Source of the DNA: a virus
Lineage: Duplodnaviria; Heunggongvirae; Uroviricota; Caudoviricetes
Virus record (IMG/VR): IMGVR_UViG_3300025602_000002
Span: 166,718-205,518 of that record
Direction: 5' to 3' (one strand)
DNA: 38,801 nt
Positions within the stretch are counted from its first letter, which is position 1; each line of letters starts with the position of its first letter. Below are positions 6,259 through 38,801 of the stretch, piece after piece. Below the pieces are notes generated by a model. That model was not told where the DNA came from and ran no database searches. It saw nothing but the letters and a program-made list of their open reading frames with translations. The translations under genes and the position numbers were made by a program.

Positions 6259-6603
6259 ATGGATAAAGCACAACACGTGTTTATGAAATACGCTGAGCGT
6301 AATAAACGTAAACCTAATCGTCTATTATTAGATTTAGCCCCAGGAGCATTATCTGGGACTGTTACCAGTTTATTGCTTCACCCCTTAGATACCCTACAAG
6401 TTCGTCGTCAGACGGCTCCTCCCTCTCAAAATGTTGACTTTAATAAACCTCCTAAACTTACGAAACCAATAGGTAAATTAAAGGCTTTTAAATCTTTGTA
6501 TAAAGGTTTAGGATTAAAATTGTTACGTAACATTCCAACGTTAGCTATAGGATTTGGTACCTACGGAGTTACTAAAGACTATCTAGACAAAAAATATAAA
6601 TAG
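6259..6603 (+). CDS. Tagged protein with a single mitochondrial-carrier (SLC25-like) repeat
   Basis: Start ATG 6259 after AAGGA; MDKAQHVFMKYAE tag; GALSGTVTSLLLHPLDTLQVRRQT and SLYKGLGLKLLRNIPTLAIGFGTYGVTKDYL match both halves of the carrier repeat. Confidence 0.75.
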   Translation: MDKAQHVFMKYAERNKRKPNRLLLDLAPGALSGTVTSLLLHPLDTLQVRRQTAPPSQNVDFNKPPKLTKPIGKLKAFKSLYKGLGLKLLRNIPTLAIGFGTYGVTKDYLDKKYK

Positions 6604-6611
6604 GAGTTAAA

Positions 6612-8651
6612 ATGGATATTCAATCACCATTAGGAACTGTAGTAGGGTTAGGAGCCTCAGCAGTCCCGTCGATTCCACAACCAAAAAGGCGTACTAAATT
6701 TAGAAAACTTATGAACGCCTCTTTAGTAGGAGCATCAAGTGCTATTTCTACGTTGGTGCCTGGCGCGCCCTTACAAAGTGCAGCAGCGGCGTCATTAGCT
6801 CCGGAAGGGAGAAAGGTGCAAGCAGCTCAAGCAGCCCTTACTGGGTCTATGTTAGGGTCTTTACCTGGGGCGGCACTGTTTACTAGACAATTTTTTGCAA
6901 GTAATAAAAAAAACATAGAAGATTTAAAAGGAAAAACATTCAACGACATAAGCGATGTTACAAAGGCCTATTTAAAAAATCAAAAGCAGTTAGCTAAAAA
7001 TTTTATAAAACAACCAGATTTACCATCAAAAGCTTTTCAATTATTTACTAATAAAATAAAAGGCACCTTAACAAAATTTAAAACATTCAAAGTACCAGCA
7101 GCCGCGTTATTAGCAGGAAGTGCTATAGGTTCTGGCATAGGATACCATAGGAGTACAAATATGAAGAAACAAGGAGAGTTTTCTAAAGCAGAACTATTAT
7201 TTAATAAAACTGCAGGACCGACTGCTGCAAGCGTGGCTGAGACAGGGCAGAAGGTATTAAAAAGAACTAAAGAGTTATTTTCTGGCAATAAGATGAAGTC
7301 TAAGATAGATGCAGCTAAAAAGAGCGGGAAAGAGCTTGACGCTAACGAGGCTGGTAAAGAAATTGTAAAAGTATACGCTACACGAGGTGCGGCGGGTACA
7401 GGCGCAGCAGCTGTATTAGCAGACGCAGTTATAGATAAAAAAGCGGAATATGTATTTTTAAAAGTTGCAATTAATGCGAAGGCATTAAAATTAAAGGCCA
7501 TAACAATTGCCCAGGAAGCGAAAGCAACCTCAGATGCGGTTGTTAAAGGAACTTCAAAAAGAGTAGTGAAAAATAAAAGTCTGGCACCCGTAGATGCCCG
7601 ATGGACCTCTTCTGGAGGTAAAGGAACCGCTGCGAATACTTCGAAATCTTCGAAAGCGTCAGCAGCTTCAACTACTTCGAAATCTACAAAATCTACAAAG
7701 GCTACAACTTCAACTGCTCCGGCAAAAACTGAGCAACCTGCGGCAAAGAAAGGAATAAGTTTAAATGCTAAACTTCTAGGGTTTGGCGCAGGAACAACTC
7801 TCGCAGGAATAGGGATAGGGCGCGCTAGTAAAACTGGATCGGTATCTGCTAGATATTTGGAACTAGTAAAAGGTAGCCGTCTAAAGGGCCTTAAACAAAG
7901 TAAAGCAGATTATATAAATAAATTAAAAACTGTGACCTCTAAACTTCATAAGGATCATCCTAAGTATACGGAACTATTAAAAAATGTAGAAAAAGAGATT
8001 AAAATCGAAACAGCTAAAGTAGTAGGAACAGTAGTAGGAACTCCTACAGCAGCAGCTACCTTAGTAGGCGGAGCTATGTCTTTAAATAAAAAAGCAGAAG
8101 CTGTAATGAGTAAATTAGGTAAAAAGTATCCTTATATAGATTTAGCACATGATCTAGAGTTGTCTAGAATAAGAGAAGAGCTACAAGCGCGAGCGCATGC
8201 TAGAGCCTTACAGGAAAGTCCTTCTGGCAAATGGAATAAAGAAAACGCTCCAGAGTATTCGGCGAGCTCAAAAAAGGAAAGAAGTAAACAATATAGGACT
8301 GCCACAATACCTAAAACAACGGGGGTCGGAGCAGCATTAGGAGCTTGATCAGGTACAAAATGGTTAGGTAAAAATCCTCCTAGTAATTATTGAGCTGTAA
8401 ACCCAGAACCGCTTTCAGTATTAAGAAAAATGAAAGGTTTAGGAAAAAATGTTGCAGTAGGAGCTGTAGCGGGTGCAGCGTTTGGAACAATGATAGCAGC
8501 TGCCGTAGGGAGCGATAAAGCTCAGCGAAAATATTTGAAAGTTAAAGGATTAAGAGGCGGTCAAGATCTTACCAGTAAACAGCTAAAAAAATATGTACCA
8601 GAGGCTTTAACAACGTCTAGATTAATTAATGATATAGACTACGCATCTTAA
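6612..8651 (+). CDS. Large basic Ala/Gly/Lys-rich putative virion protein (679 aa, 2 TGA=Trp)
   Basis: Track ORFs 6612-8348 and 8430-8651 are in frame and separated only by TGA codons; three internal tag copies; several GxxxG hydrophobic segments. Confidence 0.75.
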
Positions 8652-8669
8652 AGAGTGGGAAATAATTAA

Positions 8670-8892
8670 ATGAAAAAACAAGCAGTAAAAGACTTAGTTA
8701 CCGAAGTAAAACATCTGACTCACATGATTGAGGGTAAAAAGGGTTTTAATGTAATGAGAGGTCTCTACGGACCCAACGCAATTGCAAATTTTGCTAAATG
8801 AAAAAAAAGCAAATCCTGGAAAGAAATATAAAGATTATGCTCAGTTATACAAAAAAGCAGAATACATTTTCTCAAAAATAGTCAATGCCTAA
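8670..8892 (+). CDS. Small tagged protein interrupted by a +1 shift at an A8 run
   Basis: ATG 8670 frame reaches TGA 8799 then A8 (8801-8808); the +1 frame gives ANPGKKYKDYAQLYKKAEYIFSKIVNA and ends ATGCCTAA over the next start; unshifted frame ends at 8831. Confidence 0.5.
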
Positions 8893-9427
8893 ATTCTTTC
8901 CAGTACCAAAATTTAAGATAGATCGAGGATTCGATCCAACCCTCATTCAACAAAAAGCTGGATGAGACAATATCTTTTTGCAGGGACGAAAGAACAAAGC
9001 TAAATATAGAGCCTTAATAGCTAATAAATCTATACCATTTATGAGTAGAGAAGTGTTTACTAGGAAACCCCTCCCTAACGTTACTAGGGAAGGTTATAAT
9101 GGGATCTTAACCTCTTTTAAGAAGGTAGCTCAGGTATTTGAGAAGTATGCTAAATATACCTCTTGTAAAATCAAGTTTAAGAAACTTCAAAAACATAAAA
9201 AACCTCTAACTCCAGAAGAGCGCGCGTTAGTGATGAAAAGCAAAGCAGTTTGGAATTTTCATTTTGGTAGAGATGGCAAACGCCAAGCAACTCCGGCTGT
9301 ATGGAAATCGGTACAACCTGATGGTAGAACTATATATGTAACTAATACTCATCGAGCCTTTAATACAGCTCCTACAGTAAAAGGCGCAATTAACAGATAT
9401 CACACATTTATAAAAGGAACAGCATAA
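8885..9427 (+). CDS. Hypothetical tagged protein (180 aa, 1 TGA=Trp)
   Basis: ATG 8885 in frame with track ORF 8978 via TGA 8963; internal KVAQVFEKYA tag; compact C-terminal domain KAVWNFH..TPAVWKSV..YVTNTHRAF. Confidence 0.75.
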
Positions 9428-10149
9428 TGAATAAAGCACAATACATATTTGAAAAATGAGCTTCAACTGCGATGATAAGAGCGGTTAAGGCTAGAAAGAT
9501 CTCTGCAGAAGCAGCGGGAAAAGCTACTCAAACTTTAGGACTTAAGTCTAGATATTTAAAAGATTTGGGCCAGGGAGTTGAAGGGTTGGCACAGTTAAGG
9601 ACTTCCGCAAAACACCAACTTCAAGTTGCTAAACTCTATGACCCTAAGGGAGGGCTTTCGAGTAAAGAGGTATTAAAAGAAAAAGTTCGTACTTTTAAAA
9701 CAATGTCAGGCAAAGGCAATTTTGCCAAGTATTATGGAAAAGATCCTAAACGACCCATCACTTTCCACGAGTATAGTCCAGGAACTGCCGGAATTGGGAG
9801 CTCTATAAAACAAACTCTTCTAACAAAGGCACAAGCTACACTGAGAGGTGTACCTATGGCCGACGTAGTTAGAAACCCAGGAAACATTCAGGGTGGAAAA
9901 ATAATTGACTTCCTTCCCGCAGGTAGAAGGGGGCGCAAAGCTCTACAAACAACCACTGTCGGGAAACAGACTGAGGGATTTAAAAAAGCGGTTAAGAGTG
10001 AAGTGTGGAAGGCTCTGTCTTTAAAGAAAAAACCAGCTGCAGCTATAGAAGGTATTAAGTACCAAGCTATAGATTTTGGAAGTAAGTTATTAGAGAGCGG
10101 TATGACCCGAAATTCTAATATACCTAAAGCAATATACGGTAAGAAATAA
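9427..10149 (+). CDS. Tagged atypical protein-kinase-like protein
   Basis: TAATG start, MNKAQYIFEK(TGA=W)A tag; LGQGVEGLAQL, VAKLYD, TFHEY, DVVRNPGNI, KIIDF. Confidence 0.65.
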
Positions 10150-10150
10150 A

Positions 10151-11551
10151 ATGGATAAAGCCCTACACGTATTTAATAAGTATGCTGCCGATCAGCCCCA
10201 CCAAGCTAGAGTATTAAAGAAGCTTGAGAAGACTGATCAAATGTTGTTATATCACGGCTTAGGTTCTGGTAAAACCTATACGGCATTACGTGCAGGTGAA
10301 AAGTTTAAGAAACCTGTAACAGTTATAGGCCCTGCAGCTTTAAAACATAATTTTCCTAAAGAGAGGCTTAAGCATAAAATAAAAGGGGAAGGTTCTTATT
10401 ATTCTTATAATAAACCTCCAACAAAAAATGTTTCAAAAGACGTAGTTGTATTCGATGAAGCCCACAGAATGGGTAGAACAGAGTCCCAACGTTCACACTA
10501 TCCAGATAAAATAAAGGGTAAGAAAACCCTGCTTCTATCAGGAACTCCTATTAGAAATGAACCTGCAGAATTAATACCGCTTTTACGGGGTTTAAATATT
10601 AATATAGGTAGAGATAAAAAAAGATTTAACCAGGCGTTTATTCAAGAGACTAAACAAAAACCTGGATTTTTTGCACGAGTATTTAAGGGTATTAAGCCTG
10701 GAACGGTAAAACGTGGGAAAAATTTAGGAGTTCTTAGAAAAGCTCTACGAGGCAAAGTAGATTATCATGCCCCAACTAAAGATAAAAATTATCCTTCAGT
10801 TATAAATGAGCGTATAGAAACTACAATGTCTAAAAAACAACAAGCAGCTTATAAAATGGTTATGAAAGAAGATCCTGATTTAAAGTATAAAATTAGGCAT
10901 GGAATAGCTCCTTCTAAAACAGAATCATCTCGAATGAATGCATTCTTAGGAGCGGCACGCCAAGTATCTAATCGTCCGGGCAAATACAATTTAAGCGCTA
11001 CAGAGGCCGATGCTCCTAAACTAAATAGAGCGATGTCAGAAATTTCTAAGAGGCATAAAGCTAATAAAAAATATCGTGGAGTAACTTACTCTACATACTT
11101 AGGTCACGGAGTGGACCCAATGGCCAAAAGACTTAAGAGAACTAAGATACCTTTTGGCACCTTTACAGGAAGACAGACTGACCTAGAAAAAGCTGATGTA
11201 GTAAAGAAATATAATTCTGGCAAGATTAAACACTTACTTATATCTGGAGCGGGAGCAGAAGGGCTTGATTTAAAAGGAACAAGGCTTCTTCAAATATTAG
11301 AGCCTCATTGGAATGAACCTACTCTAAAACAAGTAAAAGGTAGAGTAAATAGATTCAAGTCTCATGAACATTTAAAAAAACAAAATCGAAATATAACGAT
11401 TCAAACATATATTAATAAGCCACGTAAAACTAGATTCTTACGTAGACAACATGCGGGAACTGATGAGTATCTAGAATTGCTATCAAAAAATAAACAAAAT
11501 CTTGTAAATGATTTTACTAAAGTATTAAAGGAAGTAGGAAGTGATGGATAA
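10151..11551 (+). CDS. Tagged superfamily 2 (SNF2/NPH-I-like) helicase/ATPase
   Basis: LLYHGLGSGKT (I), VFDEAH (II), SGTP (III), GAEGLDL (V), QVKGRVNR (VI); N-terminal MDKALHVFNKYAA. Confidence 0.9.
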   Translation: MDKALHVFNKYAADQPHQARVLKKLEKTDQMLLYHGLGSGKTYTALRAGEKFKKPVTVIGPAALKHNFPKERLKHKIKGEGSYYSYNKPPTKNVSKDVVVFDEAHRMGRTESQRSHYPDKIKGKKTLLLSGTPIRNEPAELIPLLRGLNINIGRDKKRFNQAFIQETKQKPGFFARVFKGIKPGTVKRGKNLGVLRKALRGKVDYHAPTKDKNYPSVINERIETTMSKKQQAAYKMVMKEDPDLKYKIRHGIAPSKTESSRMNAFLGAARQVSNRPGKYNLSATEADAPKLNRAMSEISKRHKANKKYRGVTYSTYLGHGVDPMAKRLKRTKIPFGTFTGRQTDLEKADVVKKYNSGKIKHLLISGAGAEGLDLKGTRLLQILEPHWNEPTLKQVKGRVNRFKSHEHLKKQNRNITIQTYINKPRKTRFLRRQHAGTDEYLELLSKNKQNLVNDFTKVLKEVGSDG

Positions 11552-11996
11552 AGCTGCGCAAGTATATAATAAATATTTTTATAAGTTTGGAATGGCGAGA
11601 GTACCCTCGTTACAAAGTTGGGATGACGTTATTAGCCAGGTAAAGAGCCATACCCGCCTTAAACCAAAATTGGACCGCGTAACACGAATGAAGTCAGTTA
11701 CGTCTAATAGGAATGAAGGAAAAGATATAATAGAGAAAGTATTACCAGAAATAGATATAGTCAAAACTAAAATGAATATTGGAGATAAAGGGGTGGTACA
11801 AACTAAAAACCATCAACTTATATTTCACAGAGCTAATCCGGATTGGGGAGAAAGCGGTGATATGCATATGTCAACATATTATACAAAAGACATGCCCATT
11901 CAAAAAAGGTTTGGTGAAAAACTAATTAATTTTACTGATGCTAGTTTAAAAAAGAAAATAAAAGACAAATATCCAGAATTAGAGATGAATTGGTAA
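11544..11996 (+). CDS. Hypothetical tagged protein
   Basis: MDKAAQVYNKYF start overlapping the helicase stop. Confidence 0.75.
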   Translation: MDKAAQVYNKYFYKFGMARVPSLQSWDDVISQVKSHTRLKPKLDRVTRMKSVTSNRNEGKDIIEKVLPEIDIVKTKMNIGDKGVVQTKNHQLIFHRANPDWGESGDMHMSTYYTKDMPIQKRFGEKLINFTDASLKKKIKDKYPELEMNW

Positions 11997-12000
11997 ACTA

Positions 12001-13284
12001 GTGCAAAATAAACCCTCTATATCAGACCACTATCAATATGGTAAACGTCTTCTTAGGCATAAGGCCTTTATGATTAGGCCCGGCAGGACTATAGGAGCCC
12101 CATACGGGACGCTTTTAGCTCATGACCTCTCTAAGTTCCGCCCAAGCGAGTGGAAGCCTTATGTAGCCTATTGGCAGGGCCCTAAAGGTATTACTGGTAC
12201 GAAGGATCCAGAAGTAACTAGAAAATTTAGAGAAGCAGCAGCGCTTCACTACAAACGAAACCCACATCATGCCCACAAACTTGGTTTGGTCTCTGAAAGA
12301 AAAAATAAATTAGAAGCAGTAACTGATTGGTATGCGACCTCAAAAGCTAACCAAGCTAATACAAAGGATTTTCCTAGTTTCGGCACCTGGGTGAGAACTC
12401 AAAGCCCAGCAGCTAGAAAGAACTTAATAGATTTAGGAATAAACACGGAGAAATTAGCAATGCAAGATAAAGTAACATTAATATTTAAGAAATATGCAGA
12501 AGTTCAGGATTTAAAAGCTAAAATCAGGAGCGGAGTAACAAATATAAAAAATAATGAAGGAGTGGCAAAAGCTACCGCTACCGTAAAAGCTATAGATAAG
12601 AAAATTAATTGAAGTAAAGTAGATAACGTGGCTACAGGGTTAGCCGTAGGAGCGAAAGGTTACCATCTTAAAACCGTACATTCACAGGTGAAGGCGGGTA
12701 AGGCCGCTCAAAAGGAAATGGCAAAACAACCATTTATGAAGGACGTTCCCGGGTATGTAAACTCTAAAATGGGAGACAGTGTAAGCGTTATTCACGATAA
12801 AGCCAGTTCTAAAAAATGAGTTAAGAAAAATGTAGGTAGAGGACCAGGAGGTTTTATATCTCATCAAATGAATAAAATTATATTAAAGCAACCTAACGCG
12901 GCAGCTACTATGGGTAAACACGGCCCCGCAGTTATAATTGGATCAAAAGGGTCTTCTCAAAAAATTATAGATCACGAACTAGGACATATCGCGGATTTTA
13001 AGAATAAGGGTCTTACTTCTCCAAAAAAATTAGGAAAACATTCAAGAGGAAAAGCAACAGATGTTTTTCATAATCTTGTGGGCAAGCCTGAAAAAACAAA
13101 TAGATTTAAAATGGAAATCGATGCTTGGGATAACGCTGGAGTACCTGCAGACGACGCTCTTAGAGTTAAGGCGTTAAAAACTTATAGGCAACAAGCAGTA
13201 GGGGGAACTAGATCTGGGATAGCTAATTTAGCTACAACTGCTTTTAAAGCGTTCACCACTGCAAAAAAGAATAAGATAATATAA
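12001..13284 (+). CDS. DUF5662-like HD-type domain fused to HExxH zincin-like domain (427 aa, 2 TGA=Trp)
   Basis: Track ORFs 12001-12612, 12628-12819 and 12868-13284 are one frame joined by TGA; LLAHDLSKFRPSEW...HYKRNPHH; internal DKVTLIFKKYA tag; DHELGH...EIDAW. Confidence 0.75.
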
Positions 13285-14018
13285 TGGATAAAGCACAGTA
13301 TATATTTGAAAAATTAGGAAAAGACTCTTCAGCTACCAGAGATTTTTTCGCAGGAGTAGAGCCTACCGGACGTTGGACATTTGAAAGCGCTATTAATAAT
13401 AAAGAAAATCATAAAAGGCATATGGGTACAGCGGTTGCAGGAGGTTTTATAGGGAGCTCTGTAATTACTCCAGCAGTGTTGTCTACTATGGTAAAAGGGC
13501 CAAGCGCCTCTAGACAGGCCGGACCCGGCATAAAGGCTAAAGCCCATGCAGTAGCTTCTGAAGCTTTTAAACCATATAAAGTATTAGGGCAGTCTCTTCA
13601 TGCGCGTAGTAAAATTAATAAAGCATTAAAAACTAAATCTAAAGTATCTAAAAAAGATTTTTCTGTTATTCTGGATACATTAAAAAACCTGTCTATAAAG
13701 GATTTAGAGAAAACAAAAGGTCCTTCAGAAAAAGGCAAGGTATTATGAAAAAATAAACGAGGGGATACTATAAAATCAAAAACTAACTTTAAGGATGTAA
13801 TTAAGGAAACATTTACTAGCGCAAGAGCTAATCCAAAGATACTGAAATCAGTAAGACACGGGTTAAACCGAGGTATAACTTTAATATCTTCTGGAATATT
13901 AGCGGCAGGAGCTATAGGAGGGGTAGCAGCAGGAGCTCAATATAATTCTGGATTAAGAGCGCGCAAGATGCTTGTTCCAGGGACTACAAAAAAATCTAAA
14001 ATTTTGGAGACAAATTAA
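13284..14018 (+). CDS. Tagged basic protein with hydrophobic Gly/Ala segments (244 aa, 1 TGA=Trp)
   Basis: MDKAQYIFEKLG; readthrough of TGA 13746 ends at a TAA overlapping the next ATG. Confidence 0.8.
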
Positions 14019-14746
14019 TGAAAGATAAAGCAACTTACATATTTGAAAAAATAGCTAAAACAGCGTTAGTAAGGGCCTTTAATCGTGGAACATTGTCGCT
14101 TAACAACGTAAAACGTATTTCACAGAGCTTACAGTTGAAACCAAGAACTTTAAGAAAGGCTGGTCGAGGCAATGAGGCGCTCGTACAACTAAGAACCTCT
14201 CCGAAACATGGAGTAGAAGTGGCCAAAATTCATGACACGACTAGTCCAATGTTTAGCCGTAAAGCCTTTAATACTAAAATACAAGTTTCAAAAAAACTGA
14301 ATAAATCACCACATTTTGCTAAGTTTCACAGAGCCGATAAAAAAAAGAAAATAACATACCAACAATATAGTGTTCCGAGTGAAAAAACATTTGACGAGCA
14401 CGTAAAACTTATAAGAAGTGCACGTAAAGATTCTAGAAAAATAATTGGTAAAACCGTGCAAGATCTTCACTCTTCAAATGTTGCTGGAAATAAAGTAATT
14501 GATTTTTTATCTCCAGATATAGCAAAAAACAGATCCACTGAACTTGGCAAGATATTTAGTAAGGGAAGTAAAAAAAAGTATAGAGCTAGAAAGCATATGA
14601 AAACCTTATCAGGACAGGCTAAACATGATTTTTTTAATAGACCCTCTTCAGAAAAGTCTACATATGATAAATGAACAGTTCGCATGTCTAAGTACAAAAA
14701 AAATAAAATAACAGATAGTAACTTACTTAAAAAGGTATATGGATAA
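14018..14746 (+). CDS. Tagged atypical protein-kinase-like protein, paralogue of 9427 gene
   Basis: MKDKATYIFEKIA; AGRGNEALVQL, VAKIHD, TYQQY, DLHSSNV, KVIDF; 1 TGA=Trp. Confidence 0.7.
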
Positions 14747-14750
14747 AAAT

Positions 14751-15359
14751 ATGAAAGATAAAGCAACAATAGTATTTGAAAAATTAGCGGGTAGATCCGT
14801 AGAAAGTTTAGGACTGATTCCTGAAGGTATGACTGTTAAACAATGGAACGACGACTATAATGCTGGCTATGAAAAATACAAAAAAATTCATGGTAAAAAG
14901 CTACACGCATATGATAAGCAATATAGATCGACCCATACATATCCTAAAGTTAGTAAGCAGCAGTTCAAAAAGAATAGGCGAAGAGCAGTATTAAACGCTG
15001 TTGGAGTGGTGGTGGCGGGGGCTCTTACAGGCGCAGCAATACTTCGTAAGTATGCAGGATCAAGAGGGTTAAAACGCCTTAATAGAGTATATAAGAGTGT
15101 TGACAATTCTCGTAGCTTAGCATTTAGACAATCAGAAAAAAATTGAAGAAACTACGATAACCATACTACTAAGAATACTGAAAAAATTCTAAGACTTGGT
15201 AGAGTATGAGACCGTTCTGCTACAAAAACAAACATACTTGATAAGAAGACAGAGCTTGCAGGAAATAAATTATATAGAAAAAAACAAGAAGGGAAACTTA
15301 GACATGTAAAAGGCATGATGAAAACTATTAAGAATGGTGATGAAGTGGGATTAGCCTAA
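14751..15359 (+). CDS. Tagged basic protein with one hydrophobic helix (202 aa, 2 TGA=Trp)
   Basis: MKDKATIVFEKLA; readthrough ends at a TAA overlapping the next ATG. Confidence 0.8.
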
Positions 15360-15961
15360 TGGATAAAGCAACAATAGTATTTGAGAAACTAGCAATCTCT
15401 ACAAGACATATAAACAAGGCTCTAACAAAGTCCAAATTACAAAATACTAAAAATTTGTGAAACGTACTTGATCCTAAAAGGCAGAAATACAGAAACCCAA
15501 CACGACTAGAATTAAAGGCTGACTCTCTAATTCACAAAAATAATACTAATCTACGAAAAAGAAAAGCTGGAAGATTTGACCGAACACAAGATCTTGAACT
15601 TATGAATAGTATAAAAACTGCTGAAGGCCTAACTAAATCTCAATTACAATTTTCAGGGGTAACTGCGGCTACTCAAAATAAAAGACTTCTTCCAGGAAAT
15701 ATAGCTACAAAGGCACAAAAGGCAGATATTACCACTATTAAATTACAGAATAAGGCAGCAGTTAAAGCGTCACAACCTTTTTTACTTAAGAAAACAGCAA
15801 AGTTTATACCAAAAAATCTTAAGGCTTATAAACTGAAGAATAGTATAAGTAAAGCTAAAATTTCAGATAAGAAAAATACTATACTCCTACAGAAAGAAAA
15901 AAATAGTGCAGCAGCAAATCGCATAGAGATGGCGAAGAATTGAGCTAAACGATACAAGTAG
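15359..15961 (+). CDS. Tagged Lys-rich protein (200 aa, 2 TGA=Trp)
   Basis: MDKATIVFEKLA at 15359, in frame with track ORF 15602; TAG stop. Confidence 0.8.
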
Positions 15962-15968
15962 TAAAAAC

Positions 15969-15997
15969 TTGACTAATTTAAATAAATAACTTATAAT
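15969..15997 (+). promoter_or_regulatory. Sigma70 promoter, predicted leaderless transcript
   Basis: TTGACT, 17 nt, TATAAT, 5 nt, ATG 16003. Confidence 0.75.
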
Positions 15998-16002
15998 AAA
16001 GT

Positions 16003-16254
16003 ATGTACATATTAATAGAACACTCTGGAAGTGACAAACATATTGAAATGGCAGAGTTTATTAAACAAGCTGCGGAAGACTTAGGATTTACCTACGAAGA
16101 AGCTGCAACTTTAGCGGATGAACCTTTGACTATATACGACGAAGATTTAACTAAGATAGCGGAACTAAAATCAATTCCAGATAGTTTTACGTTACATTAC
16201 TATTTATCCACCATGGAGGAAAAAGATAATGACCCAAATAATTCTATATGATAG
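16003..16254 (+). CDS. Small acidic KxA-motif protein
   Basis: Ends TGA-TAG, so one extra Trp under code 4; KQAA and KIAE motifs. Confidence 0.7.
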
Positions 16255-16522
16255 AAACCCAGAAAAAGATGCATTAGCTGCAGAGTTTTTTGATAAAATA
16301 GAAAAAATGGACCTTTTTGAAAAGAAAGCAGATATACCTATGGACACAGATAGCGATTTTGAAAAAATATTTATTAAGTGTGCAGAGGAATGGAAACCAG
16401 AAACATTTGCAGAATTTAAAGAAAAAGTTGCAGAAGTATTTGATAATAAATTAGATGCGCGCCTGGAAAGATGGGAAGCAAAGCTTGCTATAGATAGACA
16501 TCTTTTATCAAAATTGTTTTAA
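16229..16522 (+). CDS. Small acidic KxA-motif protein
   Basis: 97-aa ORF overlapping the upstream gene. Confidence 0.7.
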   Translation: MTQIILYDRNPEKDALAAEFFDKIEKMDLFEKKADIPMDTDSDFEKIFIKCAEEWKPETFAEFKEKVAEVFDNKLDARLERWEAKLAIDRHLLSKLF

Positions 16523-16588
16523 CCATAGGATGACATTAAACAGAAAATAAAGTACTATGAAAAAGGGTACTCTCATATTTTGAAGAGT

Positions 16589-16945
16589 ATGGACTATAAA
16601 GACTGGGACTATTCCTATTCTGTTCATAAAAATAAAAAAGGTACTCATTTCGATATGAGATTGTTTTGTCCCTCCGGAGCCGAGCTAGTGTATTCGTGAA
16701 GTTCTAAACATAACTTTTGAAAAGAGCGATATCCAGTACCAATTATTCGCACTAAAGATCACGCTCTTTCAAGTATAAATTACGAGGAAGATAGTGAAGA
16801 AAACATAGTTAAAATAGTCTCTAAAGGAACCGCCCTTTTGCTTGATGCTGAAAAGGGATTTTTGTTATTTAAAACAGAATTAGGCGATATTTTTAGTTTA
16901 AAGAATTTAAGAGGCAAACGCTATATCTTCACGTCAATAAAATAA
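16589..16945 (+). CDS. LigD 3'-phosphoesterase (PE)-domain-like protein (2 TGA=Trp)
   Basis: HKNKKGTHFDMRL...VYS(TGA=W)SSK...RTKDH matches the HxxxxxHxDxRL...SW...xxDH signature; start uncertain. Confidence 0.65.
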
Positions 16946-16946
16946 T

Positions 16947-18561: not shown

Positions 18562-18778
18562 GATACAGAAGAAAAGTGGACCTAAAGATTTTGGGTTAAA
18601 GGTATACGTACACAACCAAGATCAAAGAGGAATTAGTGATGCACTAAGACGCTTAAGAAGCAGATTAGATACAGAAAATATCATGGAAGAAGTGAGATGA
18701 AGACAGCATTATGTTAAGCCTAGCCAAAGAACCAAACATAAAAAGAAAAAATCTAATCCAAGATGTCTCAAAAGATAG
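18551..18778 (+). CDS. rpsU: Ribosomal protein bS21 homologue (75 aa, 1 TGA=Trp)
   Basis: LKVYVHNQDQRGISDALRRLRSRLDTENIMEEVR(W)RQHYVKPSQRTKHKKKK matches the bS21 pattern VxV...ALRR...E.R.R.HY.KPS. Confidence 0.8.
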
Positions 18779-26332: not shown

Positions 26333-26337
26333 TAGAT

Positions 26338-26685: not shown

Positions 26686-26694
26686 GAGATTCAA

Positions 26695-28329: not shown

Positions 28330-28712
28330 AAGAAGTAGCCTTATTAGACGATTTTAATACAGGCAGATTAAAATGAAATAGAAGCCTAGTAGCTTTAGAA
28401 GGCGGTATTGATTCGATAAGTACAGCTAATGCGTGGTCTCAAAATTTAGATACGGTCTCAGGACAGTATGTATCTGGAGACTCATATTTGCTGATTAGCG
28501 GCTCTTTTATGCATTCTGAGTTCCACACTAGCGGTATTGTTAATGATACCGGAGAATGAGCTTTATACGTTAACTCTCTACGAGTTCCTCCAACCGATAT
28601 AACTTCAATGATAAATAATGCATTAGGAATATTAATTCAACTAAACACCACAGCGCTAGGATATAGCATCGATGCGACTGATGAATTTCTACTATGAGGA
28701 CCGGTAATATAA
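28317..28712 (+). CDS. Hypothetical virion protein (131 aa, 3 TGA=Trp; absent from track)
   Basis: Open frame from ATG 28317 to TAA 28710 filling the gap before the next gene. Confidence 0.7.
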
Positions 28713-28718
28713 TACTAA

Positions 28719-31700
28719 ATGAATATATATGGTCACACTTCCTTTGTCGGGCAAACTGGCTATGCCGCTCATGCTCGTGGATTTTTTAGAGCTTTAAATA
28801 ACTACTTACCAGTTAAATTAAGAAATTTTTCTGTAGGGCCTTCCTGAGATGGAGTATCTGATCGTCCTCATGAAAAGGAAACATATCTAACAGACATTGA
28901 TAAAGAAATGTTCATTAGGCAGACTTGTGACGAAGGTATGGATAGTGGGGTGTACAAAGGTATAGATTTTGAGATGTATAACGGAGTCGGAACTCTTCCT
29001 CCAGAAAATCCTGTTAACATAATTTTATCAGAAACAAACCACCATTACTGATTCGAAAATAGTTATCCCGGCTACAACATAGGCTATAATGTCTGAGAAA
29101 GCACTTTATATCCAAATGAGTTTTTTGAAGCACTATTACGAAATGAAATGTTATGAGTACCCACTAAATGGCAACGCGACTGTAGTATCGCCCAAGGATA
29201 CCCTGCTGATAGAGTATTTGTAGTTCCGGAGGCTGTGGACACCTCAATCTTTAACGTTAGTTCTGGAAAAAGACCAGACGAGTTTAAAGACGACCGATAT
29301 AAGTTTGTATTATTTGGCAGATGGGATCATAGAAAATCTACAACAGAAATTTTAAGAGCTTTTAGTGAAGAATTTGGTGCAAATGAACCTATCGATCTGG
29401 TGTGTTCTATCGAGAATCCCCACTCGGTGGATGGAATGAATTCTACTAAAGAACGTTTAGCTTTTCATAAAATAGAACATCCAAATATTAAAATTATACC
29501 TTTTTTACCTAGAAAAGATTACATTAATTATCTTAAATATGGAGATTGTTTTGTATCTTGCGCTAGATCGGAAGGGTGGAACTTACCCTTAATAGAAGCT
29601 ATTGCTTCTGGAATTCCCACCATATGCTCAAGCCATCCGGCACAATTAGATTTTGCGGGAGGAATCTCCCAACAAGTAAGGACTATAGATCAAAGACCTA
29701 TGAAGCCTTTTATGTTTGCTACAGAAGGAGTAGGATTATGAGATGAGCCTGACTTCGACCACTTAAAGGAAATAATGAGAAGCACTTATGAAAATAGAAA
29801 TATAAATAAGGGCCAGGCACTTCTTAAAGCTCCTAGAGTCAATAAATTTAGTTGACAGAATGCGGCATTAACTGCTGTTGATATATTAAATAATAATGTA
29901 AATGAAAATTATTATAAAGATTTTGGAAATTATATTACAGCTATAAAAAGTAATAATACTCCATTAATAAAAATAAATGGACCTATAAAAAAGCAATATA
30001 CTGTTGAATTTCTTGAAGATAATAAAGAAGTATATAAAGCAGAATTATCAAATGAAGATTCTTGGGCGTCTAGTTTTCCTATTTCAAAAGATACAAAAAT
30101 TAGGATAAATGGCGAAGATCAATTTTTGCTTGATAAGGTATCAAATAAAATACAAAGTACTGCTGCAAAATTAGGAGCGTATGTAGTAGGCGGTGATCTC
30201 AAATATATGCCTTATGTAGAGGCGTGTGTAAAAAGTTTATTAGAATTTTCAAAACTCCCAATAATTGTTTATGGATTTAATTGTGAAGTACCCTTTTCAT
30301 ATTCGAGAGTAATAAATAAAAAAATAGAATATTCTGGAGGCAAAGTAAACCAGGTAGGTCATGTAGATAGCCAAAACTATTTTGCTAGAATAGCGGCTGC
30401 ATTAGAAACTACAAAAAATGATGAATTTGATTATTATATTTTTTTAGATGGAGATATGGTAGTGTCGGAAAATATAGACCATCTTAATACTTATGTAGAT
30501 AAACTAAAACATTATCCACTATGTATGAGATATAGATACCCCTCTTTATTACATTTTAGAGAGGATGGGGATGGGCGAAGAGAAAAGAAGCATGGAGAAG
30601 AGCTTTGCGAACTATACGGGTGAGATACCGGTAATTTACCATATAGCGGTCACACAGTGGCCACAGGTATATTTATGTATGATAAAAGATCTCAACGTTT
30701 TTTTGAAGAAGTTCTCCGAGAAGAGGCTTATATAAGGAACATTAGTAATACAGATTCAGATGGTAAAATTTTTGTAGATGACACGGCATGCTCTGAAGAA
30801 CGAATTATTAACATGTTATTTTGAAAATATAAATATGACGAGTTTCTTCCTATAACTTGAATTTCTCCACATGACAATGTTATGGGCTTTAGCCAGGGGC
30901 ATATAGCCTCCTTAAATTATTCTTCTATGTTTTTTATGGAGAATTGGCCCAAAGAAATGGATGAGATTTACCCAAAAAGCGAAGCTAATATACTAGCGTA
31001 TCATCCAGAAATCGATAACAAAAATCCTAATACTGCTTCAAAAGTATTGAGGTTTCTTAAAAAAATTAAGAAAGAGATTGTAGTTATAAGCTCTTATACT
31101 GATACCGCTAGTAAAGAAAAATTATTAAAAGAACGCATAGCGCAAATTAAGGGGTTTGGATACGATATATTATTATCAACCCACTATGATGTTCCTCAGG
31201 AGATAAAAGATGAAGTAGATCACTATGTGTATGATCCAAATAATGAAATATTTGAAACTCCTGAATTTTTTTGAGGAGATCTTTCTGGAGTTTATTTTGA
31301 AACTTTTTATAGTAAAAATAAAAATCATTCTTATGCAGCGTTTACATTATTTAAAAATGCCTTTAATTACTGTAAAAACTTAGAGGTTGATACTATACAT
31401 TTTTTAAATTATGATGTTTTGTTAAAATACAATCCTTTCATTAAATTTAGAACTCTATTAAAGACCACTAATAGTTCAGGATGTTTTATTACAAGTCAAT
31501 CAAACGAAGACAATATAACTTTTGAAAATGTTAGAGTTCTTATGTTTTCAGTTACCACTAAATTTAAAGGATTTGAGGGAATAGATTCTTTACAAGAATA
31601 CTTAGAGCTTTCAGAAAGACAATTGGAGAAGTGACTTTATGAGCGTTTTAGAATGCAAAATATCTGAGATGATATTATAAAATTAGATGAAAAAACAGAA

Positions 31701-34631
31701 GCTTCTCAATATACAATAAAGGATTCCATAAGCTTGACAACTTATAAAGTTAATTTATTTGAAAAAAATAAAAATTTATTGGCCCTAATTTTTAGAGAAA
31801 GATTAGATGATAATGAAGTATTATTTAAATACACTTGCTATGAGGATACTAGAGATGTATTGGAGAGAGAGGCGCATATTAAATTTGAAACAGATAGTAA
31901 AGTGGTGGTGATTAATTTAGGAAATTTAAAAGATGTTAAGAATATTAGTCTTTTAGATTCTCATAATGGTGTGGAAATAACTAAGGAACTAGACGAAAAA
32001 ACTTTATCTGAAATAGAAAATAATATAATTAGGTTAGAAAAAGAAGTAGAAATGGTGGATCTAACAAGAAATGATATATTACAAGCTATAGAAGATAATA
32101 AACCTTTAAAAGAAGTAGTGGCTATTTTAGCCTATACTAACACCAAAGAAAAAATAGATGTTTTAAAAAAATGTATAAAGCGAATTAAGGAATTCGGATA
32201 TGATATTTTGTTAGTAACACACTACCCAGTTAGTTTAGAAATACAAAAATCTGTAGAACATTATGTATATGATAGTAACAATGAAATTATAGAAATCCCG
32301 GTTACTTTTTGATTTGATAACGAAGATTATTTTGTTAAATCTGTAAATCATGAAACTCCAAATCATTCTTATGCAGTATTTTCATTATTTAAAAATGCAG
32401 AAGTATACTGTAAATCACGAGATATAGACATAATTCATTTTTTAAACTACGATATGATTCCGCAAAAGGATTTATTTAAAATTCATAAAGAAGATTTAGG
32501 TAAAGGCGCTCATGGCTCATTTTACTACTATGATACAGATGAGGATTCTTTTGCTATGACATTTTTTTCAATTTCTAAAAATTTTACGGCGTTCAATAAT
32601 ATAAATAATTCCCAGCAATATTTTAAGGCTTCTTCTTCAAGAGATGGGGATTCTAGACTGTATCTAGAGCCTTGGATTTATGATCTTATTATTAAAACAG
32701 AGGGAGAGTCTAATCTAAAAATAAGAAAATATATAGATGTAGAAAAGGATTATGGAGTTAAGAATTTAATTACTGATGGAGCTCTTAATATATATGGATT
32801 TGTATATAAGAAAGAATTTAGGTTAGTATTAGGTAAACCAAATATTACTGATGATTCTAAATATTTGTTAAAATATAATGGTAAGGAAATTAATTTAGAT
32901 TTTTCAGGTTCTAAATTTTTTCATCATAATTTGGGATTAAGTTCTAAACTAAATAAATATCAAATATATAAAGATGGTAAATTATTCAAGAATGAGCTAG
33001 TTACAAAAGATTACAAAAAAAGAATAGAAAAATATAACACATTTGTCGTGAAGGCTGATACTAAACTTCCTAATAAGTTGATGATAGTAGCTCACCCGGA
33101 CGACGAACTTATTTTTGGAGGATACGACTTATTAAAAGACCCTGAAGATTGAAAAGTTATATCAGTAACGGGAAAAAGTAATCCAATTAGAGCGTATGAG
33201 TTTAGCAAAGCTATGGAAACTTTAGGAGTAGGAGAATATGCTTTATGAGATTTTCCTGACTCTTTATATGATAAATTTGATGAAAAATATTTAAGAAAAT
33301 TTATATTAGGTGAAACTTCTAGAAGATATTATAAAAAAATAGTAACTCATAATTCTAACGGAGAGTACGGGCATGTACAGCATAAATCTCTTCATGATGC
33401 TATGATAGAAATTAGTCCTAGAAATTTATATACTTTCTCGATAGGAGATAAAACTAAAATATATCCTTTAGAAGAAAAAAGAAAATTACTTGAAGTTTAT
33501 GAGAGTGAGGAAACAGAATTGCCTGGTTATTTAGATTATCTTTATTACGGGGAATCAACTTCTATATTAAATGGAAATATATCAGTTGACCATAATTTTG
33601 TAGATGGACCATTTGTAGAATTGTGAGGATCAGAATCTGACCATACTTATGATATAAAATTTATTGATCAAGATTTAGAAGAGGTTGTATATGAGAAAAT
33701 TGGAGTATCTGCTAATAGCTGAATTAAAGCAAGTAGAGTATATTTTACCAATTATATGATTACGGTACATAAAGGTGAAGAATTAGTGAACCAATACGCT
33801 TTTAATTGTGATAATAAACGAGTATTAATTGCGTTAGATAGCAGCTCTCTAGGAGATACTTTGGCTTGAATACCCTATGTTCAAAAGTTTAAAGAAAAAC
33901 ATAATTGCGAAGTAATAGTGTCTACATTCCATAATCATTTGCTTGATTATCCAGAATTAAAGTTTATTAGTCCGGGAACTACTGTTGACAATTTATACGC
34001 AAGCTATGTAGTAGGTATTAGAGAAGATGATGATTTCCTTCATAAAAGAAATCCATTTTCAATTCCTTTACAAGAGGTTGCTTGTGATATTTTAGGTCTC
34101 GAGTATGAAGAACTATTACCGCAAATGGCTAAGATTAAAGGACATACTGATATTGACGGTCCTTATGTATGTCTAGCGGCCCACTCCACAGCTCAGTGTA
34201 AATATTGAAATTATCCTGGAGGATGGCAAACTGTGGTAGACTATTTAAATTCAAAAGGTTATAAAGTAGTAGTTATAAGTAAAGAAGAAAGTGAATTAAA
34301 TGGCATAATCGACAAAACTAACTTGAATCTTACTGAAACAATGCGTATATTGAAACATGCTACATTCTTTATGGGATTGAGTTCAGGATTAGCTTGGCTA
34401 GCTTGAGCGTTAAAGGTGCCAGTATTAATGATTTCCGGCTTTACAGCGCCTTGGTATGAATTTAAATGTGTTAGAATGCATAAAGACACAGTATGTCATA
34501 ATTGTTTTAATGAGGAAAAATTTGATAGAGGCGATTGAAATTGATGTCCTAGAGGAAAGAATTTCGAGTGCTCTTCAAGTATTTTACCAGAGGAGGTAAT
34601 TAATACTATTTATGAAAATTGAAATATCTAA
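28719..34631 (+). CDS. Giant multidomain glycosylation protein (1970 aa, 23 TGA=Trp): GT4 + GT-A-like + duplicated domain + PIG-L-like deacetylase + TibC/GT9-like heptosyltransferase
   Basis: Eight track ORFs in one frame with no TAA/TAG between 28719 and 34629 (gaps checked codon by codon); NV(W)ES, GRWDHRKS, RSEGWNLPLIEA, FS(W); FLDGD; AHPDDE and THN..GEYGHVQH; SLGDTLA(W)IPY, GLSSGLAWLA(W), CHNC. Confidence 0.85.
31071..32453 (+). repeat. Duplicated 115-aa domain within the glycosylation protein
   Basis: 31071-31415 and 32109-32453 share GYDILL.THY, HYVYD.NNEI, F(W), NHSYA.F.LFKNA, IHFLNYD. Confidence 0.85.
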
Positions 34632-34992
34632 TGGAGAATTAATAGATAAGCTATCTATTCTTCAATTAAAAACTGAGAATTTTACTGACCCAGAAAAGAT
34701 TAAAAATGTACAAACAGAATTTGAGGCTTTACAACATAGCGTTGTAGAGCTATTGAATTTCTCATTGGATTCTGAAAGTTATATGAATCTTTATAATTGT
34801 AATGCAGAGCTATGGGATATAGAGGACCAACTGCGTAGAAAAGAACAATTAAAAGAGTTTGATGAGGAATTTATAAAATTAGCGCGAGCAGTGTATTACA
34901 CTAATGACACTAGAGCTAATTTAAAAAAAATAATTAACAACGAAACCAACTCTATGTTTATTGAGGAAAAAGAATACGTAAACTATAACTAG
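34612..34992 (+). CDS. DUF6165-like protein
   Basis: MKIEISNGELIDKLSILQLK...NAELWDIEDQLR...LARAVYYTNDTRA..K..IN. Confidence 0.75.
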   Translation: MKIEISNGELIDKLSILQLKTENFTDPEKIKNVQTEFEALQHSVVELLNFSLDSESYMNLYNCNAELWDIEDQLRRKEQLKEFDEEFIKLARAVYYTNDTRANLKKIINNETNSMFIEEKEYVNYN

Positions 34993-35006
34993 TTTGGAGA
35001 CCCCGC

Positions 35007-38000
35007 ATGTCAGGACAAATAAAAGCCAAACAAATATCGGATGTATATAGCCAATCACAGGCTAATGCAACATTTTCAGCAAAATCCCACAACGCATCCG
35101 CCGCACCACCAGCGTCCCCAATAACTGGACAGACTTGGTGAGATTCATCTAATGAAGTATTAAAAACATGAACAGGTAGTACATGAGTAGCCTCTGAAGG
35201 TACCTCAGGTACTTCTGGCTCAAGCGGAGCTAGCGGTGCTAGCGGTACTTCCGGATCAAGCGGAGCTAGCGGTGCTAGCGGTACTTCCGGAACTAGCGGT
35301 ACTTCTGGATCAAGCGGATCAGCAGGTTCAAGCGGATCTTCGGGGACTTCCGGAACTTCTGGAACTTCAGGATCAAGCGGAACTTCAGGATCAAGCGGTA
35401 CGAGTGGTACAAGTGGTACGAGTGGTACTTCAGGTTCAAGCGGTTCAGCAGGTTCAAGCGGTTCAAGCGGTACGAGTGGTACTTCTGGATCAAGCGGGAC
35501 TTCAGGAACTTCAGGATCAAGCGGATCATCAGGATCAAGCGGAACTTCGGGAACTTCTGGTTCAAGCGGGACTTCAGGAACTTCTGGTTCAAGCGGGTCA
35601 GCAGGATCAAGCGGTTCTTCCGGAACTTCCGGATCAAGCGGTACGAGTGGAACTTCAGGATCTTCTGGAGAGAAAGGAGTTACTGGAGATTCAGGATCAA
35701 GTGGATCAAGCGGAACCTCAGGCTCTTCTGGAGCTAAAGGAGACGCTGGAACGAGTGGTTCAAGCGGAACTTCTGGTTCAAGCGGAACTTCAGGATCAAG
35801 CGGTACTGGCGGTACTTCTGGGTCTTCTGGAGGAGTTGGAACGAGCGGTACTTCAGGATCAAGCGGAGCAGCAGGAACTTCAGGTTCAAGTGGAGATACG
35901 GGGGTGCCCGGAGCTTCAGGGTCAAGTGGTTCTTCCGGAACCTCAGGATCAAGCGGTACGAGTGGTACTTCGGGGTCAAGTGGAACTAGCGGTACTAGTG
36001 GTACTTCGGGTTCGAGTGGATCAAGCGGTTCAAGCGGTTCAAGCGGTACGAGTGGTACTTCAGGTTCAAGCGGTACGAGTGGTACTTCAGGTTCAAGCGG
36101 ATCAAGCGGTTCAAGTGGATCAAGCGGTACGAGTGGTACTTCCGGAACTAGCGGAACTTCGGGATCGAGTGGAGCAGCTGGAACTTCAGGAACAAGCGGT
36201 TCAAGCGGAATAGACGGAACTTCCGGGTCAAGTGGTACGAGCGGTATAGGCGGAACTTCCGGATCTTCAGGAGGTGCAGGTACAAGTGGTACTTCTGGAT
36301 TAAGCGGTACGAGTGGTACGAGCGGTTCTTCTGGGACTTCCGGATCAAGCGGGACTTCTGGATCAAGCGGTTCAAGCGGTTCAAGCGGCACAAGCGGTAC
36401 TTCCGGTTTAAGCGGAACGTCAGGTTCAAGCGGTACAAGTGGAACTTCAGGATCAAGCGGAACTTCAGGATTAAGCGGAACTTCAGGATCAAGCGGTACA
36501 AGTGGAACTTCAGGTTCAAGCGGATCAGCAGGATCAAGCGGTTCAAGCGGATCAAGCGGATCAAGCGGTACGAGTGGTACTTCGGGGTCAAGTGGAACTA
36601 GCGGTACGAGCGGTACTTCGGGCTCAAGCGGGGATAGTGGTACGAGTGGTACTTCAGGGTCAAGTGGGACTTCAGGAATTAGCGGTACTTCAGGGTCAAG
36701 TGGGACTTCAGGAATTAGCGGTACTTCAGGATCAAGCGGAACTAGCGGTACTAGCGGTACTTCTGGGTCAAGCGGGACTAGCGGTACTAGCGGTACTTCT
36801 GGGTCAAGCGGGACTGCGGGTACAAGCGGTACTTCTGGATCAAGTGGAACTAGCGGTACAAGTGGAACCTCAGGGTCAAGCGGTTCAAGCGGTTCAAGTG
36901 GAACTAGCGGTTCAAGCGGAACTTCAGGAACTTCTGGAACTTCAGGTTCAAGCGGAACTAGCGGTACGAGTGGTACCTCTGGATCAAGCGGTTCAAGCGG
37001 TTCAAGCGGTGTAAGCGGCACTTCCGGATCAAGCGGTACGAGTGGTACTTCAGGTTCAAGCGGTTCAGCAGGTTCAAGCGGTTCAAGTGGAACTTCAGGA
37101 ACTAGCGGAACTTCAGGATCAAGCGGAACCTCAGGAACTTCAGGATCAAGCGGTACGAGTGGAACTTCGGGATCTTCTGGAGAAAAAGGAGTTATTGGGG
37201 ATTCAGGATCTAGCGGGTCAAGTGGGACCTCGGGCTCTTCTGGAGCGAAAGGAGACGCTGGAACAAGCGGTTCAAGCGGAACTTCCGGAACTAGCGGAAC
37301 TTCAGGTTCAAGCGGTACTGGCGGTACCTCTGGGTCTTCTGGAGGAGTTGGAACTAGCGGAACTTCAGGATCAAGCGGAGCTGCAGGAACTTCCGGTTCA
37401 AGCGGTACTTCCGGTTCAAGCGGAACTTCCGGAACTAGCGGAACTTCGGGTTCAAGTGGAACTTCCGGAACTAGCGGAACCTCAGGATCAAGCGGTATAA
37501 GTGGAACTTCAGGATCAAGCGGTTCAAGCGGTTCAAGCGGATCAAGCGGAACCTCAGGATCAAGCGGTACAAGTGGTACGAGTGGTACTTCAGGTTCAAG
37601 CGGTACGAGTGGTACAAGTGGTACTAGCGGGTCGTCTGGAACTAGCGGGTCAAGTGGAACTTCCGGTTCAAGTGGTACGAGCGGAACCTCAGGATCTTCT
37701 GGAGAAAAAGGGGTTACGGGGGATTCAGGTACAAGCGGCTCAAGTGGAACTAGCGGTACAAGTGGAACTTCAGGATCAAGCGGAACTAGCGGTACGAGTG
37801 GTACTAGCGGGTCATCTGGAACAAGCGGATCAAGCGGAACTTCAGGAACTTCTGGAACTTCAGGATCAAGCGGAACTTCAGGAACTTCTGGAACTTCCGG
37901 GTCAAGCGGAACTTCAGGAACTTCAGGAACTTCAGGTTCAAGTGGATCTGCAGGATCAAGTGGTTCTTCCGGAACTTCAGGATCAAGCGGTACAAGCGGT

Positions 38001-38801
38001 ACTAGTGGTACTTCGGGGTCAAGCGGTACAAGTGGTACGAGTGGTACTTCAGGTTCAAGCGGAACTAGTGGTACTTCTGGGTCAAGCGGTTCAGCAGGTT
38101 CAAGCGGTTCAAGCGGAACCTCTGGTTCAAGTGGTACTTCAGGCTCAAGTGGAACTTCAGGTACAAGCGGAACTTCAGGTTCAAGCGGAACTTCAGGTAC
38201 AAGCGGAACTTCTGGGTCAAGCGGTTCAGCAGGTTCAAGCGGTTCTTCCGGAACCTCAGGTTCAAGCGGTACGAGTGGTACTTCAGGATCAAGCGGTACA
38301 AGTGGAACTTCAGGATCAAGCGGAACTTCAGGATCAAGCGGAACTTCAGGAACTTCAGGATCAAGCGGAACTTCAGGAACTTCAGGTTCTAGCGGAACCT
38401 CCGGGTCAAGTGGAACTTCAGGAACTTCAGGTTCAAGTGGATCGGCAGGTTCAAGCGGTTCAAGCGGAACTTCGGGATCAAGCGGAACTTCAGGAACTTC
38501 AGGTTCAAGCGGTTCAAGCGGATCATCAGGATCAAGCGGAACTTCCGGGTCAAGCGGAACTTCAGGAACTTCAGGTTCAAGCGGATCAGCAGGATCAAGT
38601 GGCTCTTCCGGAACCTCCGGGTCAAGCGGTACGAGTGGAACTTCCGGGTCAAGCGGTACGAGCGGAACCTCCGGATCAAGTGGTTCAAGCGGTTCAAGCG
38701 GTTCAAGCGGTTCAAGCGGTTCAAGCGGAACGTCTGGATCATCTGGTAACACCGGAAATGCAGCCGGACATGTCCAGTACAACTTTGACAGCTCAACAAC
38801 T
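35007..38801 (+). CDS. Collagen-like tail/virion fibre, partial (at least 1265 aa, 3 TGA=Trp)
   Basis: ATG 35007; PASPITGQTW(W)DSSNEVLKT(W)TGST(W) fibre motif, then Gly-X-Y repeat; open at the window end. Confidence 0.88.
35199..38762 (+). repeat. Gly-X-Y repeat, 396 triplets by length, mainly G-S-S and G-T-S
   Basis: 9-nt periodicity (GGN-TCA-AGC, GGA-ACT-TCA); Gly every third codon, mirrored by Pro every third residue in the antisense shadow ORF. Confidence 0.95.

Follow-up and report, generated by a model that had tools for sequence, protein, structure and literature searches.

The window analysed here, a 38,801-nucleotide stretch of tailed-virus DNA (Caudoviricetes), is the reverse complement of positions 818-39618 of a 141,836-bp IMG/VR virus record (hereafter G000). 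Its rightward block (6217..38801, + strand), when TGA is read as tryptophan (Trp), holds 34 genes with 67 in-frame TGAs, and comparison with homologous sequences indicates that these TGAs are in all likelihood sense codons that have stood for Trp over evolutionary time. Each gene module of the genome follows one of two codes; taking the recoded block and the standard-code early genes jointly, the window very likely derives from a marine phage of ~210 kb with two genetic codes. Under standard annotation 21 genes of the window are broken or missed, among them those for the terminase, ribosomal protein S21 and a 1970-amino-acid (aa) glycosyltransferase protein. According to CheckV, G000 is 67% complete. 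Near-identical contigs of 208-212 kb are present in European Nucleotide Archive (ENA) assemblies, and with these, one of them of 211.7 kb, about 67 of the ~70 kb absent from G000 could be read. Within the window, small minus-strand open reading frames (ORFs) occupy positions 1-6124, and from 6217 onwards genes lie exclusively on the plus strand. The GC content is 37%, except for 26-31% around 31-34 kb and 53% in a repeat region from ~35.2 kb to the end.

TGA codons in the rightward block

ORFs of at least 80 aa were called under translation table 4 on the + strand of 6217-38801. The resulting chain comprises 33 ORFs, of which 20 contain TGA, and the counts per ORF sum to exactly 66, as against the roughly 66 of an original prediction made from the letters of the window; the 67th TGA, at 18698, lies in a 75-aa S21 gene below the cut-off. 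The first and last in-frame TGAs are at 8346 and 35184, and the block genes terminate at TAA (25) or TAG (7). Over the 10,653 codons of the chain, frame 0 contains 66 TGAs and not a single TAA or TAG, compared with 755 and 860 TAA plus TAG codons in frames 1 and 2, indicating that selection strictly maintains TAA and TAG, but not TGA, as stops. Of 6217-35000, 97.6% is covered by the code-4 chain vs. 73.2% by code-11 + strand ORFs of at least 60 aa, and coverage by ORFs of at least 100 aa is 88% under code 4 and 64% under code 11; binned along the sequence, the gains concentrate in the rightward block. Code 25 yields the same ORF structure as code 4. That code 11 would fragment or miss about 20 genes had also been predicted, and agrees with the 20 TGA-containing ORFs, or 21 genes including S21. 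Stop and next start overlap by one base (TAATG) at 9427, 13284, 14018, 15359, 21316 and 27547, and at 17770 two genes overlap by 8 nt; the gene ends named earlier (14018, 15359, 17770 and 27547) are all correct. TGG alone makes up 0.54% of codons in the block and TGG plus TGA 1.15%, so that Trp content becomes normal when TGA is counted as Trp. The TGAs are not assembly errors, since three independent ENA assemblies, 99.97-100% identical, retain all 39-40 TGAs that they cover.

Which residue stands at these codons was assessed against homologues of less than 90% identity. Because an unmasked alignment would reward Trp, TGA and TGG codons were both masked as X beforehand, and a site was considered testable with at least five aligned homologues (n = 34). 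The commonest residue is Trp at 24 of these sites and aromatic at 27, and at no site is it Gly. In the pooled data Trp accounts for 1109 of the 1770 residues facing a TGA (63%, vs. a background of 2%), a share that compares with 848 of 1660 (51%) at TGG control sites, and Gly, Cys and Ser all fall outside the ten commonest residues. The claim that TGA stands for Trp is thus upheld, and most of the motifs from which it had been drawn were located: CNH-W (19384) and GE-W-V (19474) in the terminase, NV-W-ES (29094) and FS-W (29853) in the glycosyltransferase (GT) region, DTLA-W-IPY (33867), LT-W (27607) and the fibre motif W-W...W...W (35139-35184).

Individual genes, all on the + strand, give the same picture. 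The terminase large subunit (18763..20301; GpA ATPase type, Pfam PF05876) has TGAs at 19384, 19474 and 19912, and the corresponding columns are 85%, 87% and 89% Trp among 115-119 homologues; its identity to cultured phages is at most 28%. For the 1970-aa protein (28719..34631), which has a GC content of 31% and contains 23 TGAs vs. 9 TGGs, 97 homologues of less than 90% identity contribute 764 residues opposite its TGAs, 530 of which are Trp, with a negligible share of Gly. An Ig-like late protein (27547..28329) has five TGAs, of which three of the four testable ones are dominated by Trp (100%, 81% and 86% at 27607, 28039 and 28213). The conserved gene at 17770..18561, with a weak nucleotidyltransferase-like match, also has five: Trp is commonest at 18121, 18166 (93%) and 18448, and around sites 18331 and 18340 the alignment is gapped and variable, the TGG sites of that stretch being unconserved as well.

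Four relatives' loci (L008-L011), identified around terminase homologues with 54-57% identity in marine and other metagenomes, one of them from Tara Oceans, share the gene order S21, terminase, head genes. All four have TGG at each of the three terminase TGA columns, and likewise at all three TGA columns (17388, 17490 and 17607) of 16947..17777, a conserved late gene with no assigned function. In L009, L010 and L011 the stops within the alignments are all TGA (13 cases), and 11 of these 13 face a Trp codon of this phage. The interchange of TGA and TGG thus runs both ways, with TGG here and TGA in a relative as well as the reverse; L009 and L010 themselves have TGA at sites 27607 and 28213 of the Ig-like gene. 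L008, on the other hand, is free of in-frame TGA, and at 13 of 19 TGA sites of this phage its codon is TGG. Given this difference between L008 and the others, the lineage includes standard-code, lightly recoded and heavily recoded members.

Standard-code modules and the layout of the two codes

The leftward arm of the window (368..6124, - strand) follows the standard code. Its Trp codons are exclusively TGG, and it has TGA stops at 790-792, 3292-3294 and 5930-5932, the last being ATGA-coupled to the next ORF. A survey of the same kind on the other strand of G000 33,450-130,000 covered 163 code-11 ORFs with 24,051 codons, in which TGG alone accounts for 1.63% of codons (393 TGG). TGA terminates 24 of the 163 ORFs (15%), eight ATGA overlaps are present, and code 4 adds just 4% coverage. 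Genes in the standard code include those for two RNA ligases, a polynucleotide kinase-phosphatase (PNKP), a PP2C phosphatase and a kinase. The ligases, one T4 Rnl1-like and one Rnl2-like, form a tRNA-repair set with PNKP at G000 76884-81009 (L126 1985-6110), and the Rnl1-like gene itself terminates in TGA. As the early genes have TGA stops and TGG-only Trp, the code of the host is presumably the standard one.

Outside the window, the recoded block continues for 11.7 kb and encodes more fibres, including one with an S74 chaperone domain, and the baseplate block is also recoded. A cluster of GT25, GT2, TOD1-like, GT11 and asparagine-synthase-like genes on a near-identical contig (L133 1480-9054) contains 20 in-frame TGAs. 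This cluster is co-directional with its standard-code flanks, one encoding ribonucleotide reductase and sugar-nucleotide enzymes and the other made up of primase, helicase and recombination genes, and the DNA polymerase gene lies further along the same strand. Because the cluster is recoded amid co-directional standard-code genes, recoding goes by module and not simply by strand. Overall, the recoded modules are the head, fibre, baseplate and glycosyltransferase genes.

Within the recoded block, TGA use is uneven. The head-core module (20354..26249; phrog_2522), which includes the major head protein (25326-26249), has no TGA vs. eight TGGs when the protease is left aside (Fisher p = 0.0015 against the rest of the block). 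The head maturation protease-like gene itself (21887..23608; phrog_18299) has one TGA, at 23003, in a column that is variable in relatives (L, F or A). The original prediction had placed the TGAs in a late/structural region. Head and fibre genes are indeed present, but the block also contains an SNF2-type helicase, S21 and a mitochondrial-carrier-like repeat, none of which is structural, and the head core is free of TGA apart from the protease; the label "late" is our inference from gene content.

A candidate decoder of TGA and competing explanations

If TGA is read as Trp in one set of genes, an important question is what reads it. G000 contains 28 tRNA genes and a transfer-messenger RNA (tmRNA) gene, and the single UGA reader in the record is a 97-nt tRNA(UCA) located outside the window at G000 135590-135686, on the complement, which is the late strand. 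It has a 7/5 acceptor/T-arm helix, a 6-bp D stem, G73 and an encoded CCA end. Its long extra arm consists of a 5-bp stem and a loop with UCCAA, resembling the anticodon loop of tRNA-Trp. On the basis of these sequence features tRNA(UCA) is probably the decoder of TGA, and its putative Trp identity is deduced only from the meaning of the codon together with the loop motif. Viral contigs were scanned with the exact anticodon arm of this tRNA, the counts given here being of tRNA genes in the loci returned. The motif [C/U]CCAA is found between anticodon arm and T arm in 27 of 37 long tRNA(UCA) genes, and most of the foldable hairpins have a 7-nt loop, CUCCAAA or GUCCAAA, together with a Trp-like acceptor stem; about 9-10 other long tRNA(UCA) genes resemble true selenocysteine (Sec) tRNAs and are without the CCAA loop. 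The median code-4 coverage gain is 0.11 for loci with the two-arm tRNA vs. 0.02 for controls, and 6 of 22 loci reach 0.15, so that the link between the two is only modest.

By Pfam, release factors 1 and 2 (RF1 and RF2; PF00472, PF03462) and tryptophanyl-tRNA synthetase (TrpRS; PF00579) are absent from the record, and in the walked 67 kb additional tRNAs are lacking, as are Pfam hits to an RF or TrpRS among the called genes. With no phage TrpRS gene found, Trp charging of tRNA(UCA) would rest on the host enzyme. The window does encode a tRNA-Trp(CCA) (5492..5564, - strand), so the phage would supply both Trp decoders. Known changes that let tRNA-Trp(CCA) read UGA are A24 or C9 (Hirsh-type) and a 4-bp anticodon stem (PMC13092985). 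The copy in the window has neither: its anticodon stem is 5 bp and G24 and A9 are normal, and hence it is not a known UGA-reading variant.

A sequence of events that might connect these elements begins with a host on the standard code, in which the early genes would be translated at once. The phage would then provide tRNA(UCA) from the late strand, and this tRNA, if charged with Trp, would outcompete RF2 at UGA, with the UCCAA loop of the extra arm perhaps keeping it recognisable to the host TrpRS. Genes with TGAs, up to 23 in one ORF, would become translatable only after tRNA(UCA) appears, and drift from TGG to TGA might be tolerated where demand on the suppressor is low. This view of drift fits the observation that TGA is densest in the AT-rich glycosyltransferase genes and zero in head-core genes. 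In this scheme we infer which tRNA decodes TGA, how it is charged, when this happens and what code the host uses. Put together, we tentatively propose a switch of code that may be run by a single phage tRNA(UCA) mimicking the tRNA-Trp anticodon loop and charged by host TrpRS, without a phage RF1 or TrpRS. Such a switch would be graded, the head core avoiding TGA and the AT-rich glycosyltransferase and fibre genes depending on it most, and would go by module instead of strand in a lineage whose members range from standard to heavily recoded.

Several observations weigh against TGA being Trp throughout, or against tRNA(UCA) being the agent. Trp does not dominate at ten of the 34 testable TGA sites, three of which are dominated by F/Y and the others variable or gapped, and about 24 TGA sites have fewer than five homologues and are outside the residue tally. 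Five TGAs (15941, 16249, 28318, 28695 and 34620) lie no more than six codons from a TAA or TAG stop, which makes them indistinguishable from relic stops, and at 28318 the TGA overlaps the start of the following gene as ATGA. As for the tRNA, its body is of type II and Sec/Ser-like, scoring 48.5 bits with the Rfam tRNA-Sec model (cut-off 47), and because of that body it could be charged by seryl-tRNA synthetase.

The public code-11 gene calls, which present the pieces between TGAs as separate small proteins, could be taken at face value, in which case the TGAs would be real stops in pseudogenes, misassembled genes or deliberately split genes. This is extremely improbable, as homologues cross the TGAs as single proteins, Pfam domains span them, TAA and TAG are wholly excluded from the frame and independent assemblies have identical TGAs. 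Hardly more credible is a different sense meaning, i.e. Gly (code 25), Sec, Cys or Ser. The ORF structure is identical under code 25 and tRNA(UCA) is barely above the tRNA-Sec cut-off of Rfam, but besides the residue tally (Gly commonest at none of 34 sites; Gly, Cys and Ser outside the ten commonest residues), the three TGAs in the collagen-like gene all avoid the Gly of Gly-X-Y, 67 Sec sites without selenocysteine insertion sequence (SECIS) elements are implausible, and the acceptor/T-arm helix of 7/5 differs from the 8/5 of bacterial tRNA-Sec. A host that itself uses code 4, as mollicutes do, with the phage merely following and no switch taking place, would explain the late block equally well. 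Nevertheless, we consider such a host very unlikely: the 163 ORFs of the other strand, with their 393 TGGs, are covered under code 11, 24 of them end in TGA and there are eight ATGA overlaps; the left arm of the window has three more TGA stops; in an AT-rich code-4 genome TGA would be expected to encode Trp throughout; and the phage has its own tRNA(UCA).

The remaining alternative accepts TGA as Trp and changes the route, with tRNA-Trp(CCA), the phage copy included, reading UGA by near-cognate pairing, to which a phage factor weakening RF2 might contribute. The Sec/Ser-like body of tRNA(UCA) and the position of tRNA-Trp(CCA) about 650 nt from the switch between the arms speak for it, as does the finding of Borges et al. 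(10.1101/2021.08.26.457843) that just 35% of code-4 phages had a detectable suppressor. tRNA-Trp(CCA), however, carries none of the changes known to allow UGA reading (5-bp stem, G24, A9), a near-cognate leak could not pass a ribosome through the 23 TGAs of one ORF, and a dedicated tRNA(UCA), a member of a conserved phage family, is present. We therefore regard this route as unlikely, and retain TGA as a Trp codon with tRNA(UCA) as its probable reader. tRNA-Trp(CCA), separated by these ~650 nt from the divergent switch, stands alone in the early arm, at a great distance from the main tRNA array at G000 72-107 kb.

Other features and relation to known recoded phages

Directly upstream of the terminase, and likewise in all four relatives' loci, lies the gene for ribosomal protein S21 (18551..18778, + strand; PF01165, E = 1e-11, residues 23-67). 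The Pfam match extends across its TGA at residue 50 (18698), a column that is K, A or S in relatives. The long ORF at 6612-8651 has no family match. The 1970-aa sugar-modifying protein combines Pfam domains for GT1/GT4, an epimerase-like unit, a PIG-L deacetylase and a GT9 heptosyltransferase-like enzyme, and may glycosylate virion or host proteins; its nearest homologues are 650-1000 aa long and go by the Joint Genome Institute (JGI) name 'autotransporter O-heptosyltransferase', and public code-11 gene calls list it as a string of small unrelated ORFs. The family names LigD-PE and FN3 that had been attached to genes of the block could not be verified, LigD_N and fn3 having no Pfam match anywhere in the record at E up to 0.01. 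The collagen-like (Gly-X-Y) fibre gene (35007..38801, + strand; Pfam Collagen, E = 5e-159) runs off the window, and its three TGAs are all in an N-terminal W-rich motif. The Gly-X-Y repeat (34958-38801, 53% GC) is stop-free in several frames on both strands, which accounts for a spurious opposite-strand ORF of 1274-1293 aa in public gene calls. The first gene of the block (6217-6603, + strand) encodes a single mitochondrial-carrier (SLC25) repeat (PF00153, E = 1.7e-14), an unusual family for a phage. Most small late genes and left-arm ORFs have no match in Pfam or PHROGs.

Elsewhere in the genome, a CCA-adding enzyme (tRNA nucleotidyltransferase) and a peptide deformylase are encoded in the part missing from G000 (L134 1285-2769 and L135 9017-9553), and with S21, the 28 tRNAs and the tmRNA make up a translation-related set. 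The tmRNA, called by ARAGORN at G000 109068-109439, has the tag GRPAVKLAA. A well-formed tRNA with anticodon CUA, an amber suppressor, is located at G000 100867-100943 (L003 168-243). It had prompted us to consider recoding of TAG, which was rejected: a TAA-only reading just fuses adjacent same-frame genes, and nothing in the record points to TAG being read as sense. Near the record end, a tandem repeat with a 63-nt period (G000 141092-141814) has one frame full of TAG and is probably non-coding, and the first 290 nt of G000 have no match in the 211.7-kb contig, which suggests an artefact of the assembly end.

The two-code arrangement is real and alters the annotation; it is already known from other phages and does not represent a new kind of system. 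The original prediction had called the phenomenon established, and two studies bear this out, with TGA-to-Trp recoding in Borges et al. (10.1101/2021.08.26.457843) and dual coding in the work on the annotation tool Mgcod (10.1101/2022.06.29.495998). The former describes code-4 gut phages of animals and humans, 'Agate' (~127 kb) and 'Jade' being two of the clades, in which TGAs accumulate in structural and lysis genes, along with suppressor tRNAs, standard-code hosts and standard-code relatives, and proposes that recoding delays the translation of late genes. The phage described here is similar in that its TGAs align with Trp and occur in structural and not in replication genes, in having a tRNA(UCA) and in having standard-code relatives; the Agate clade shows the same mix of standard-code and recoded members. 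It differs in being marine, ~210 kb in size and S21-bearing, with relatives from Tara Oceans and other aquatic assemblies, and in that glycosyltransferase clusters are its most recoded class. Moreover, no 'code change operon' of the Jade type, in which TrpRS and RF1 genes stand next to tRNA-UCA, was found in the record or among the called genes of the walked 67 kb, and a suppressor tRNA with a long extra arm and a Trp-anticodon-like loop is not found described in the available text of the study.

The Mgcod study (10.1101/2022.06.29.495998) reports block-wise dual coding in crAss-like phages, with opal or amber reassigned. The present case is similar in that one block is recoded and the remainder is in the standard code, and differs in phage group and habitat, and in the recoding of the L133 glycosyltransferase cluster amid co-directional standard-code replication genes. 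The phage TrpRS:tRNA-Trp(UCA) pairs AP1 and HF2 insert Trp at UGA (PMC12636597), and a phage tRNA(UCA) is likewise the proposed Trp-inserting opal suppressor here; AP1 and HF2 bring their own TrpRS, whereas no TrpRS gene was found in this phage. Phages of Absconditabacteria and Gracilibacteria (code 25), as mentioned by Borges et al. (10.1101/2021.08.26.457843), also use TGA as a sense codon, but read it as Gly and not Trp, and the early genes of the present phage keep TGA as a stop. What this phage offers is a concrete and testable candidate for the switch, namely a single unusual tRNA unaccompanied by a release factor or synthetase. With both standard-code and recoded relatives, its lineage lends itself well to studies of the spread of a code change within a genome. 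Recoding of TGA to Trp in late genes, for the most part documented from gut phages, is thereby extended to an abundant lineage of marine jumbo phages.

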